Source: Chloroflexota bacterium (GTDB lineage: Bacteria > Chloroflexota > Dehalococcoidia > Lucifugimonadales > GCA-002723415). Taken from it: 64,000 bases of DNA. This document shows, one piece after another, positions 21,743 through 34,090 of the stretch. Location: the NCBI GenBank assembly GCA_002723415.1, contig PBOA01000009.1, forward strand, positions 23,258-87,257, in the 5' to 3' direction. How positions within the stretch are numbered: the first letter of the stretch is position 1; each line of letters starts with the position of its first letter. The notes under the pieces were generated by a model. The model had not been told where the DNA came from. It made no database searches and saw only the letters and a program-made list of their open reading frames with translations. The translations under genes and the position numbers were made by a program.

Positions 21743-22318
21743 TTAATATTTATACAATTTGTTCTTTCTTATATAATCTTCTACTTTTTCTGGAACAAGC
21801 AAGTCTAAATTTGAACCTTGTTTTATTTTTTCTCTTATTTCACTTGCACTAACTTCAATAAATTTACCATCAATAATATTAAATTTAATATTTTTCATAT
21901 ATGACTTAGCGCTATTAAATCCAGGCCTATTAATAACAAAAAATTCTGAAGATTGTATCAAATCTTTATACCTGTGCCATTTTTTAATATCACTTAAAAC
22001 ATCTGAGCCTAAAAGAATACAAGGCTTATCTTCAGAATTTTTTTTATTAAGATCGGACAATGTATCGACCATATAAGTGGGGCCTTTTCTTTGAATATCT
22101 ACATCTGAGACAAAAAATGCTGGATTTGAATCTATAGCAATCTTTATCATATTTAACCTGTGAAATGCGCTTACTGTATTAGAGCTTTTCATCCAGGGAT
22201 TTCCCGCAGGCACAAATATAACTTTATTAAAGTTATATGAATTTAATGCCAGTTCGGCTGCCAATAAATGCCCCTTATGTATTGGGTCAAATGTTCCTCC
22301 AAATATAATTTCTCTCAC
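21743..22318 (-). CDS. nadD: Nicotinate-nucleotide adenylyltransferase
   Basis: FGGTFDPIHKGH, GPTYMVDT, LLGSD, VSASEIR; GTG start. Confidence 0.95.
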   Translation of the reverse strand: MREIIFGGTFDPIHKGHLLAAELALNSYNFNKVIFVPAGNPWMKSSNTVSAFHRLNMIKIAIDSNPAFFVSDVDIQRKGPTYMVDTLSDLNKKNSEDKPCILLGSDVLSDIKKWHRYKDLIQSSEFFVINRPGFNSAKSYMKNIKFNIIDGKFIEVSASEIREKIKQGSNLDLLVPEKVEDYIRKNKLYKY

Positions 22319-23565
22319 ATATTACCCCATTTCCACTCAGCTTCACCAATTCTCACCAAGCTACCTTCTTCAATTCCATAATCAATCAGTTTTTTAAAAA
22401 CTCCAGCCTTTTCTAAGAAAGCGTTCCATTGGGCTTTAGCATTCCAGTCTCTAAAGTCCACCATCCCTGAAACCCTCTCTCCTTTTCGGTACTCTACTAT
22501 AAATACACCATCTTTCTTAAGTATATTGATCTCATCTTGTATTTTTACAGGGACATCGTTTCTAATATATGAAGTAACCCTATCACAAGGAATATTCTTT
22601 AAAAGAGTTTCAATAGATTCTAGCAATGAACTGAGTCCTTCCCCTGTTAAAGCTGATATAAACACAGGGGACAGGGGATAAACCATTTCTTTTATTGAGC
22701 TTTTTTCTATGTTCATTTGGTCAACTTTATTAATAACAAGTAATTTCGGCTTGTTATTTAAACCTGATTGACTCATTTTTAATTCTGCATCAATCAAGCC
22801 AATATCATTTTTTATGTCAGAGGATGTCCCGTCAACTAAGTGGATTAGAGCTTGGGTTTTTTTAGCATGTTTTAAAAACTCAATTCCTAGTCCTGCGCCC
22901 TTATGTGCTCCTTCTATAAGTCCTGGAACTTCAATTACTTTTATAGTTTTTTCATCATTATAAATATTTACCATTCCAATTACTGGCTCGAGGGTTGTAA
23001 AAGGATATCCTGCTATTTTAGGCTTGGCCTTACTAATTCGTGATAAAGTCGTTGATTTACCAGCATTAGGAAGACCCACTATACCCACCTCTGCAAGTAT
23101 CCTCATTTCAAGTTTTAGTTGTTTTGAAGTAGTTTGTACTCCTTTTTCTGCCAATAATGGAAATCTATTGACTGGCGATACAAACCACTTATTTCCTTTT
23201 CCTCCACTTCCTCCATGTTGTAAAACAACTTCATCTTTGTTTTTTAATAATTCTGCGTAAGGATCACTCTCTTCGTCTTTATATATATATGTTCCAACAG
23301 GAACTTCTATAATCAAATTATTAGAATCCGAACCATGTTTTAGCCTTGGCTTTCCAGAATGCCCATCTGTCGCAAAAAACTTTTCGCCATTTCTAATATG
23401 ATTTAAAGTGTTTAAATTGTGGCTGGCTTTTACTATTATATCTCCTCCTTTTCCTCCATCACCCCCGTCAGGTCCACCAGCAGATACAAACTTTTCTTTC
23501 CTCCCACTAATACAACCATCTCCACCATTACCCGCCTTTATTGTAATTAATACTTCATCAATCAT
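22315..23565 (-). CDS. obgE: Obg/CgtA GTPase
   Basis: Gly-rich Obg fold (GGPDGGDGGKGG), G1 GLPNAGKS, G2 YPFTT, G4 NKVD, C-terminal OCT-like domain. Confidence 0.96.
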   Translation of the reverse strand: MIDEVLITIKAGNGGDGCISGRKEKFVSAGGPDGGDGGKGGDIIVKASHNLNTLNHIRNGEKFFATDGHSGKPRLKHGSDSNNLIIEVPVGTYIYKDEESDPYAELLKNKDEVVLQHGGSGGKGNKWFVSPVNRFPLLAEKGVQTTSKQLKLEMRILAEVGIVGLPNAGKSTTLSRISKAKPKIAGYPFTTLEPVIGMVNIYNDEKTIKVIEVPGLIEGAHKGAGLGIEFLKHAKKTQALIHLVDGTSSDIKNDIGLIDAELKMSQSGLNNKPKLLVINKVDQMNIEKSSIKEMVYPLSPVFISALTGEGLSSLLESIETLLKNIPCDRVTSYIRNDVPVKIQDEINILKKDGVFIVEYRKGERVSGMVDFRDWNAKAQWNAFLEKAGVFKKLIDYGIEEGSLVRIGEAEWKWGNM

Positions 23566-23580
23566 TTAATTTAATCCAAT

Positions 23581-23823
23581 ATATATAATAATAATAATAA
23601 TAATGTTTATTTGTATACTAATATAAAGATTTTAGTGGTTTTAGGAATAATTTTAACACAAAGTATTGGTTGATATGAGTTTATATTTGTTACTTCTATG
23701 TTCTTTGTTGAGTTTCCTTTTTGTTGACAAGAAGGGGAGCTTTTTATAGGAGAACACAAGTCAACGGTTTATAAACGCATAGGAAACCCTTCCGTTGATT
23801 TAGGCAGATAAGAGGGTTGATAT
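23581..23823. other. Predicted chromosomal replication origin (oriC)
   Basis: Intergenic region just downstream of dnaA; + strand changes from C-rich to G/T-rich here (by eye); AT-rich tract with (TAA)6; six GTTGA/TCAAC cores; TTTAACACA (23652-23660) is one mismatch from TTWTNCACA. Confidence 0.7.
23586..23603 (+). repeat. (TAA)6 trinucleotide array, candidate DnaA-trios
   Basis: Six perfect TAA units (3'-AAT-5') immediately followed by box-like TGTTTATTT (23604-23612). Confidence 0.6.
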
Positions 23824-25131
23824 TGTTTTGTTGTAATTAATATCTTCCTGCATTTTTTTAATAGAGTTGTTTAGTATTTTGATCACGGTGGAGTGTGATC
23901 GTCCACCAAGTTTTCTTCCGATGTCAGTTGGCCCCAGGTTGGTTTTTTCACTAAGAAGGTGTATCGTTATCATTCTTCCTAAAGCTATTGACTTAGCCCT
24001 GTTTGTGCTTTCAATTTCACTTTCGTCTATTTTTAAATGTTTTGCTACAAGCGATAAGATATCCTCCGCAGAAAATATTTTTTTTGTTTGTGAAGTAAAT
24101 TCAGAGGAGAGGTCTCTAGCTTTATCAAGAGTAAGCTCTTTTTTAGATATTTTTGCATATGCGGTGAGCCTCGTTAGGGCTCCCTCAATATCCCTTATGC
24201 TCTTAAACTTTTGTTCTGCTAGAAAAGATATGATTGATGGGTTTATATAAAACCCTGTTGCTTCTAATTTTGATGATAATATAGCAGCCTTTGTTTCTAA
24301 TTCAGGCTTTTTGATGTCTACTATAAGCCCACTTTTTAATCGTGACTGAATTCTTTTTTCAAGCTGGTGCAGTTCGGAAACAGGTCTGTCACTAGCAATG
24401 ACAATTTGTTTGTTTAAGAGATGCAAATAATTAAACATATGAAAAAAGGCTTCTTGTGTTTGTTCTTTTCCAATTAAAAACTGTATATCATCAATAAGTA
24501 TAACGTCAGATTTTCGCAAATTATCTCGAAATTCACTAGTTTTCCCATTTTTAATCGAAGATATAAATTGATTTGTGTATTCTTCAGAAGTTAAATATAA
24601 AGAAGAGGCTTTTTTGATATTGGAAGCGGTGCCAATGGAATGAAGTAAGTGGGTTTTGCCCAGCCCGACTTCAGAATAAATAAATAAAGGGTTATATAAA
24701 ACCCCAGGATTTTCAGATACTGCCAGGGCTGCATGATAAGCAAGTTCATTTGATTCTCCAACAACAAATGAACTAAAAGTGTAGCGATCGTTTAAAGGTA
24801 GTAATGGAGTAAAAACATTTTCTTTATTTTCTTTTTTGATATTTTTTGCTTGGCGTGATGGCTTTGTAGTAGAATTTTTTCCAACAACAACAAATTTCAA
24901 ATCAATATTAGTTGATGCAATCCTCTGTGTGGTTTCAGAAATAAGCGGATACATCCTATTCTGTAGCATTTCAGCAACAAAAATATTTGGAGTGCCAACA
25001 GTAAGGGTATTGTCTTTAGATTCTAGCCCAATGGTATCTTTTAGCCAAGTTTCATATGTTGGTCTTGTGATTTGTATTTGGAGATCTCCAAGGACTGTTT
25101 GCCAAATATTTTTTGCAGTTAAATCAGTCAT
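23800..25131 (-). CDS. dnaA: Chromosomal replication initiator DnaA
   Basis: Domain I (W...TYETW), YTFSSFVVGESN, YNPLFIY, GLGKTHLL, LIDDIQF, domain IV GGRSHSTV. Confidence 0.97.
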   Translation of the reverse strand: MTDLTAKNIWQTVLGDLQIQITRPTYETWLKDTIGLESKDNTLTVGTPNIFVAEMLQNRMYPLISETTQRIASTNIDLKFVVVGKNSTTKPSRQAKNIKKENKENVFTPLLPLNDRYTFSSFVVGESNELAYHAALAVSENPGVLYNPLFIYSEVGLGKTHLLHSIGTASNIKKASSLYLTSEEYTNQFISSIKNGKTSEFRDNLRKSDVILIDDIQFLIGKEQTQEAFFHMFNYLHLLNKQIVIASDRPVSELHQLEKRIQSRLKSGLIVDIKKPELETKAAILSSKLEATGFYINPSIISFLAEQKFKSIRDIEGALTRLTAYAKISKKELTLDKARDLSSEFTSQTKKIFSAEDILSLVAKHLKIDESEIESTNRAKSIALGRMITIHLLSEKTNLGPTDIGRKLGGRSHSTVIKILNNSIKKMQEDINYNKTISTLLSA

Positions 25132-25284
25132 TTTTTCCTGTATAATAATAATGAATAGAAATAGATTTTAACATAACAAAATATCAAAATTGCAAGCATA
25201 AAATTGCGAATTTTTCATCATTAAAAATAATTCTGAATTAGCTAAAATTTGATGCATTGCTAAAAGAAGGGATAACAAGGCTTT

Positions 25285-33992: not shown

Positions 33993-34090
33993 TTTTATCC
34001 TAAATTTTTGTTTGACTAAATGTTAATACTAGGTTTTATTTATATAATGAGAAAAAAAATCATTAAATTTATTAACTGTTTCTAATTATT

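Follow-up and report, generated by a model that had tools for sequence, protein, structure and literature searches.

A predicted replication origin with candidate TnAAC-type DnaA boxes between dnaA and obg of a SAR202-type bacterium

Few protein-DNA recognition pairs of bacteria are as conserved as the DnaA box and its reader, and Ori-Finder, DoriC and the BUS search program rely on this conservation. Few departures have been documented, namely that of Thermotoga and that at box position 5 in Epsilonproteobacteria. The 64-kb stretch of DNA analysed here (the window) raises the question of where, and through which sites, a chromosome starts replication when this box is missing: the window holds no exact match to the canonical TTATCCACA, and matches with one mismatch are rarer in it than chance would give (11 observed versus 22.8 expected). 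A first-pass annotation had placed an origin with altered boxes and a DnaA-trio array next to dnaA, in an interval that it described as free of canonical boxes; this interval also lacks any one-mismatch match to TTATCCACA.

The genome is a draft of 37 contigs and 1.86 Mb (31% GC, 97.6% complete). Its host is best explained as a low-GC, genome-reduced bacterium of the SAR202 order (Chloroflexota) and of marine type. The earlier description of the chromosome as SAR202-like fits the source names (SAR202 or Chloroflexi) carried by homologues at about 47% identity.

Position of the predicted origin on the contig

Open reading frames and Pfam matches place a 234-bp gap downstream of dnaA and upstream of obg, both of which lie on the - strand (Table 1). 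Cumulative GC skew along the 97-kb contig reaches its minimum at about 23.7 kb (window position), within the 23.6-23.8 kb expected by the first-pass annotation, which had seen strand composition flip in this interval, and then forms a plateau to about 33.7 kb. Because skew in this genome strongly follows gene orientation, we fitted per-gene skew to two terms, the orientation of the gene and the side of a switch point on which it lies. The fit gave 0.139 for orientation and 0.119 for the replication side. It was best with the switch between obg (skew -0.29) and dnaA (+0.09), two genes on the same strand, and the residual sum of squares was 351 with the switch versus 1584 without it. The plateau from 23.7 to 33.7 kb is accounted for by - strand genes between 26 and 34 kb, whose replication term is that of the right-hand side. 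On either side of the gap, genes point away from it. Skew was judged from this single 97-kb contig because the assembly is in 37 pieces.

No cluster of canonical boxes was found elsewhere in the 97.6%-complete assembly; canonical boxes at a skew minimum elsewhere were what the first-pass annotation had named in advance as speaking against its proposal. The gap upstream of dnaA (25132-25284) has neither TCAAC nor TCCAC cores, and the gaps at 26.1, 28.1 and 34.0 kb have no box cores. The last of these, a 98-bp gap of 15% GC between divergent genes (33993-34090), marks a flip in gene orientation and causes the second step in the raw GC skew. It was rejected as an origin on the grounds that the - strand genes at 26-34 kb already have right-hand skew and that it holds no box cluster.

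Of the features by which an oriC is recognized, linkage to dnaA or another origin neighbour is present, as the region lies between dnaA and obg; a cluster of TTATCCACA or TTWTNCACA boxes is absent, the gap containing no TnCAC core at all. The location proposed at the outset is supported by the skew switch, by the homology of the gap to box-and-trio modules in related genomes and by the lack of a canonical cluster elsewhere. The dnaA-obg gap is very probably the chromosomal oriC, and the coincidence of the skew switch with the dnaA-obg module supports this module as the true origin in SAR202. An RNA element in its place is unlikely, since an Rfam search of 22-36 kb at the E-value threshold gave no match and single-strand folding of the gap gave no structure signal (z = -0.40).

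Site content and architecture of the dnaA-obg gap

TCAAC/GTTGA occurs five times in the gap versus 0.38 times expected from first-order Markov simulations of the 234 bp (P = 5e-5), and the more general TnAAC occurs 10 times versus 3.6 expected (P = 0.004). A look-elsewhere calculation, in which any 5-mer with at least two G/C could reach five copies in the gap, gave P = 0.028, a value that we count against reading these sites as TnAAC boxes. The genome-wide rate of TCAAC/GTTGA is 0.33 per 160 bp, and the gap holds the densest non-tandem, non-coding cluster of the 1.86-Mb genome; other clusters of five apparently lie within coding sequence. Only one GTTGA cluster is denser. It lies about 6.1 kb to the left of the window start (G000:C9:17144-17270), in an 18-bp tandem repeat that resembles GTTGAAAACACTGAAACT and contains N calls; the repeat ends an apparent coding sequence, and a likely ssb gene follows shortly downstream.

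All six GTTGA cores listed in the first-pass annotation are present where it had placed them, five on the + strand and one on the - strand (Table 1). Not all of them are purely intergenic: the site at 23815-23823 lies inside dnaA, and that at 23793-23801 straddles the end of the gene. The consensus given there, NGTTGAYWW, says too much, and TnAAC describes the core better than GTTGA. T-n-A-A-C, with the fifth box position free, is all that the sites have in common, and beyond the 5-bp core they share little. The TAA third of the box, which is read by Arg399, is degenerate, so that in a gap of 26% GC the sites have low information content. A genome scan with the full 9-mer (TTATCAACA, at most two mismatches) proved uninformative because AT-rich DNA dominates its matches, among them the gap at 34 kb with 15% GC. 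On the + strand at 23713-23738, a T-tailed hairpin carries the TGTTGACA box in its loop, and relatives have small hairpins at the same place. We rejected it as a dnaA terminator, as its T-tail is on the wrong strand for dnaA.

Table 1. Features of the dnaA-obg region, in window coordinates
Feature	Coordinates	Strand	Basis or remark
obg GTPase gene, conserved downstream neighbour of the origin module	22315..23565	-	Pfam; synteny in 24/30 same-order loci
dnaA-obg intergenic region, predicted oriC (box cluster, obg promoter and unwinding module)	23566..23799	.	ORFs, Pfam, skew switch, homologous gaps
DnaA-trio-like array, (TAA)6 read 5'-3' (3'-AAT-5' repeats)	23586..23603	+	Longest run in genome; nearly invariant in relatives
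Trio-proximal candidate variant box TGTTTATTT (reverse complement AAATAAACA, core TAAAC)	23604..23612	+	Alignment A1: block nearly invariant in all lineages
Extended -10 promoter TGTGTTAAAAT, probable obg promoter (putative function)	23650..23660	-	Family alignment and order-level gaps
Candidate variant box GGTTGATAT	23668..23676	+	GTTGA at 23669; in this genome only, not in aligned relatives
GTTTA (TAAAC) core of positionally conserved TnAAC site	23679..23683	+	Aligned in four family lineages
Candidate variant box TGTTGAGTT	23706..23714	+	GTTGA at 23707; not conserved in relatives
Candidate variant box TGTTGACAA (reverse complement TTGTCAACA) in loop of small hairpin	23722..23730	+	GTTGA at 23723
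Tandem pair of candidate boxes on dnaA-sense strand, CGTTTATAA then CGTTGACTT, 11 bp apart	23758..23776	-	GTTGA at 23761-23765
Candidate variant box CGTTGATTT (reverse complement AAATCAACG), overlapping dnaA stop codon	23793..23801	+	GTTGA at 23794
dnaA, 443 aa	23800..25131	-	Pfam Bac_DnaA, Bac_DnaA_C, DnaA_N; stop codon 23800-23802
GGTTGATAT within dnaA coding sequence, last codons; doubtful box	23815..23823	+	GTTGA at 23816; inside ORF 23800-25131

There is no genus- or family-level relative among species representatives, and a search of genome contigs for related loci returned only distant DnaAs from other phyla. We therefore turned to genomes of the same order, 40 of which have DnaAs that are at most 50% identical. 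Of 30 same-order loci, 24 have obg next after dnaA across a gap of 140-410 bp, and these gaps carry canonical TGTGGATAA clusters in a shared layout. Read on the dnaA-sense strand, a first TCCAC box is followed by two or three tandem (T/C)GTGGA(T/C)AAC boxes and then by one to three TCCACA boxes; towards obg there follow an extended -10 (TGnTAnAAT), one or two TCCACA-type boxes and, just before obg, the trio element TTAYTAYTGTTATTA. This element is kept across the order, including genomes of 55-65% GC. In several loci (L050, L052, L058; G011:C1:306.9-308.2 kb) dnaA and obg are separated by an inserted MFS transporter gene, and the box-plus-trio module stays immediately upstream of obg rather than beside dnaA.

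The gap of the present genome has the same order of elements, with cores that are all TCAAC/GTTGA or TAAAC/GTTTA. Its tandem pair corresponds to the tandem TGTGGATAAC boxes of canonical relatives, and its trio-proximal box occupies the place of their TCCACA box beside the trios. The orientation of box to trios is also theirs, TCCACA followed by TTA-type repeats on the dnaA-sense strand. B. subtilis has the same orientation. The extended -10 lies between the box cluster and the trios, here and at the same relative place in L010-L052; if an obg promoter sits inside the origin, obg transcripts would start there and cross the unwinding element.

By its published definition (PMC8287927), a basal unwinding system has three or more NAN trios, preferably 3'-[G/A]AT-5', and a box from which a spacer of 0-16 bp separates them; the order-level module at the obg end fits this definition. 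Here the trios are six perfect TAA units (at least three are needed), and (TAA)6 exceeds every other TAA/TTA run of the 1.86-Mb genome, in which only three runs reach five units. The array directly abuts TGTTTATTT, as had been read from the sequence earlier. The definition's box, which allows at most two mismatches at 0-16 bp from the trios, would correspond to AAATAAACA with no spacer; this site has four mismatches to TTATCCACA, and two both to TTATCAACA and to the putative variant TTATNAACA. The pairing of trios and adjoining box that the first-pass annotation had likened to an unwinding module is conserved in relatives.

Seven DnaAs from marine metagenomes are 74-76% identical to that of this genome, and their contigs are fully syntenic. 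In the gap alignment, the block GTATACAAAT(A/G)AACA(TTA)5-6TATATA is nearly invariant and the extended -10 is likewise kept; outside these elements the gap sequences diverge. The main variable column of the trio-proximal block (alignment A1) is the free fifth box position, A or G, and the adjoining GTATAC (23613-23618) differs only in L044 (TAGAC). TnAAC is found at dnaA-sense positions 24-25, 117-119 and 190-192 in 4/4 lineages, and only two TnAAC positions are strictly co-aligned in all four. At 24-25 the four lineages have GTTnA; at 35-36 the GTTGA of this genome is joined only by GTTCA in L041, with ATTGC in L039. The core at 23679..23683 reads TAAAC, TAAAC, TAAAC and TCAAC across the four lineages.

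Single TCAAC sites turn over more freely. Five are present here, four in L044, two in L039 and one in L041, and we count this turnover against the reading as TnAAC boxes. The TAAATCAAC of the box at 23793..23801 is kept in L039, L040 and L044, TCAAC or TTAAC lies near the place of the 23722..23730 box in L044 and L039, and the site at 23815..23823 is conserved in L041-L043 only. With the four lineages pooled, GTTGA is the most enriched 5-mer (12 versus 1.95 expected), and TnCAC is absent or nearly so from the four family gaps (0-1 copies). The conservation in relatives on which the first-pass annotation had staked its motif is only partial for single sites at about 75% identity.

DnaA residue 433 and box position 6

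We aligned the C-terminal 126 residues of this DnaA to E. coli domain IV (1J1V), to which it has a phmmer match, and to B. subtilis DnaA (8BTG). The segment that reads GGRDHTTV(L/I)HA in E. coli and B. subtilis is GGRSHSTVIKI here, with Ser412 (codon 23896-23898) as the equivalent of E. coli Asp433. The E. coli base-contact residues, as relayed from Fujikawa 2003 by PMC2533591 and PMC7561715, are R399, P423, D433, H434, T435 and H439; this DnaA has R, T, S, H, S and K at these positions and so departs from the canonical set. Its nearest relatives with canonical boxes (L010, L012 and L013) have R, T, D, H, S and K, and since they are otherwise identical at the contact positions, Asp433Ser is the only base-contact difference. 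Ser433 is fixed in 7/7 relatives at 74-76% identity, as part of RSHST(I/V). The Asp-His pair at 433-434 is described as highly conserved, whereas Ser435 and Lys439 also occur often in Epsilon- and Deltaproteobacteria (PMC5043019). The helix that begins at residue 434 reads TnCACA (PMC5742627), and this is the part of the box that is changed here; we infer that Asp433 contacts box position 6. Another match to the Bac_DnaA ATPase domain elsewhere in the genome (G000:C8:22070-22489; L002) is weak (25.9 bits); the open frame of 458 aa that holds it may encode a DnaA-related AAA+ protein.

Counts of box cores follow residue 433 across the order. Lineages with Asp433 are dominated by TnCAC even in low-GC gaps (L020 has 7 TnCAC versus 0 TnAAC), and low-GC canonical relatives keep 4-7 TnCAC copies. 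Lineages with Ser433/Ser435 or Thr433/Ala435 have 6-10 TnAAC and 0-1 TnCAC. Lineages with Asn433 are mixed, and because L046 and L050 keep TnCAC with Asn433, residue 433 is no simple one-to-one code.

The Thr433 clade consists of GC-rich SAR202 bacteria whose DnaA reads KTHATV (Asp433Thr, Thr435Ala), with four species represented (L049, L051, L052 and G011, which holds L035). Upstream of obg, all four species conserve an aaTCAACg box, the equivalent of the 23793..23801 box, followed by three tandem TGTT(G/C/A)ATAAC (TGTTNATAAC) boxes, and on the trio side they have TCAACAct(A/G)TC(G/A)ACAggc and then TTAYYAYTA..GTTATTA. The fifth position of the 10-mers varies and position 6 stays A; as these sequences are 52-58% GC, the 10-mers are no effect of composition. 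In three of the four species an MFS transporter gene splits dnaA from the module. Around the module of G011, skew across 200 kb is too noisy to speak for or against an origin there. On the DnaA tree the Ser433 family lies among canonical lineages with Asp433, and the Thr433 clade lies inside an Asn433 clade that keeps TnCAC. These separate placements mean that the change from C to A arose twice.

Together, the covariation and the homology of architecture make a shift of the DnaA boxes to T-n-A-A-C in company with Asp433Ser the best reading, and a likely one. The changed initiator recognition sequence put forward in the first-pass annotation is largely supported by the counts in the gap, by Asp433Ser and by the independent Asp433Thr clade, binding itself being predicted.

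Two further lineages have TnGAC sites. L021 (G022:C1), with DnaA KSHNTV (Ser433/Asn435), has TGTCGATAA boxes with TTGACA/CCGACA beside the trios and G at position 6. The 25% GC gap of L033 (G025:C43) has five ATTGACA repeats (TnGAC), and a one-residue deletion in its DnaA removes Asp433 (GKR-HSSIIY); it may also be of the type with G at position 6. We tentatively suggest, at slightly less than even confidence, that residues 433 and 435 set the specificity for position 6 and that a series of naturally re-coded initiator-origin pairs exists within the SAR202 order, in which Asp would read C, Ser/Ser and Thr/Ala would read A (twice independently), and Ser/Asn (L021) and the Asp433-less DnaA of L033 would read G.

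Proposed mechanism, competing readings and known systems

We propose that the gap is an origin at which DnaA would bind TnAAC 9-mers through a domain altered by Asp433Ser and would unwind the duplex at the trios; taken as a whole, we judge this explanation probable. DnaA would bind clustered 9-mers in which T-n-A-A-C replaces T-n-C-A-C as the major-groove core, that is, with A at box position 6 (T at position 4 when written TGTGGATAA). Promoter-distal sites in both orientations would be bound near the dnaA end. The conserved AAATAAACA abutting six TTA/TAA trios by obg would then allow a DnaA-ATP filament to stretch and open the duplex, as in the basal unwinding system of B. subtilis. The changed box would accompany Asp433Ser at the start of the recognition helix, and obg transcripts from a promoter within the origin would cross the unwinding element. 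DnaA binding at these sites, the reading of position 6 by residue 433 and unwinding at the trios are all predictions from sequence comparison.

The gap could be an origin in which the GTTGA/TCAAC repeats are incidental. DnaA would then have a relaxed or different specificity, or would depend on the trio module and other factors, and the real determinants would be the AAAT(A/G)AACA-(TTA)n block and a few TnAAC sites. The turnover of TCAAC between close relatives, the co-alignment of just two TnAAC positions in four lineages, the look-elsewhere P of 0.028 and the degenerate site flanks all point this way; set against them are the rank of GTTGA as the top pooled 5-mer, the near-absence of TnCAC from four gaps when low-GC canonical relatives retain several copies, and an independent clade with the same C-to-A change in strongly conserved 10-mers. 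We regard incidental repeats as unlikely.

The remaining two alternatives assign the sites to functions other than initiation. A leader or promoter of obg could also explain the conserved TTA run and extended -10, and the region could be a DnaA-controlled regulatory element of an obg-nadD operon, its boxes and TTA run acting on the obg promoter or leader and not marking a replication start. A conserved extended -10 does lie inside the module, and transcripts from it would run through the TTA repeats; where a gene is inserted, the module remains beside obg and not dnaA; and local skew near the G011 module is unclear. Yet the replication-side skew term switches exactly at the gap with genes pointing away on both sides, the assembly has no other box cluster, and origin and promoter roles can coexist, so that a purely regulatory role seems improbable. 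Less probable again, and in our view very unlikely, is that the GTTGA(C) motifs are sites of another DNA-binding protein (a transcription factor or nucleoid protein) or -35-like TTGAC elements. Two sites do contain TTGAC(A/T), which resembles a -35 hexamer, and a promoter scan returned weak promoter-like matches in the region, but these number 3 versus 2.1 in shuffled sequence; the sites also match the DnaA boxes of homologous gaps in position and orientation, their change parallels a substitution in the reading helix of DnaA, and the region yielded neither an Rfam family nor a structure signal.

The proposed origin with TnAAC boxes most resembles the incC/basal unwinding system of B. subtilis oriC (DnaA-box#6/#7 plus trios; PMC6669920, PMC8287927). 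Both have a box or pair of boxes followed on the same side by at least three trinucleotides with central A (3'-[G/A]AT-5'), both lie downstream of dnaA with further boxes at a distance, and in both the module is conserved in relatives. Here, in contrast, obg takes the place of dnaN as the neighbour, a perfect (TAA)6 makes up the trios, no spacer separates it from the proximal box AAATAAACA, the cores are TnAAC instead of TnCAC and the promoter of the downstream gene lies within the module. Compared with E. coli domain IV on TTATCCACA (PDB 1J1V; consensus TTWTNCACA), the domain is the same (Bac_DnaA_C), Arg399 and His434 are kept and the fifth position is free in both. Asp433 is replaced by Ser; Pro423Thr, Thr435Ser and His439Lys differ too, but these three are also found in SAR202 relatives with canonical boxes. 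Position 6 is A here, whereas E. coli requires C. Other dnaA-obg modules of SAR202 and Dehalococcoidia agree with this one in locus, element order, extended -10 and trios by obg, and differ in having canonical TGTGGATAA or CGTGGACAAC boxes together with Asp433.

Precedents in which box specificity is tied to substitutions in helix 5 of domain IV are the 12-mer box AAACCTACCACC of Thermotoga maritima and the T-specific position 5 of Epsilonproteobacteria (PMC6669920, PMC5043019). The present case differs from both in that a single position (6, C to A) is linked to residue 433, that the change recurs independently within one order and that a sister G variant exists (L021, L033). TTATCAACA has been recorded on the linear chromosome of Cyanothece 51142 (PMC4674748) and in oriC oligonucleotides of Thermoanaerobacter tengcongensis (PMC1888806). 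Those origins have it as a lone degenerate site amid canonical boxes, and their DnaA is canonical, whereas here its core is the sole core type. The literature that we searched holds TTATCAACA only as such a single degenerate site in otherwise canonical origins, and no paper in it dealt with origins of SAR202 or with a variant at position 6.

In this locus one core base (position 6) and one residue at the start of the reading helix appear to have changed together, with recurrence in another clade and a G type in two further lineages, which gives a case in which the joint evolution of origin and initiator can be tested. Short oligonucleotides (TTATCAACA, TTATAAACA, TTATCCACA and TTATCGACA) and a domain of roughly 100 residues would suffice for the test. 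The change would also account for searches with canonical boxes finding nothing in an abundant marine group. If the code suggested for residues 433 and 435 is true, DnaA-box recognition is more evolvable than has been assumed, origin finders based on TTATCCACA miss such origins, and the pairs could serve as orthogonal initiator-origin sets. At a further locus, upstream of a KNHATV dnaA that has no obg downstream, a 3.6-Mb contig carries dense repeats of the GTCAGT/ACTGAC type in both orientations (L047:1861-2000).
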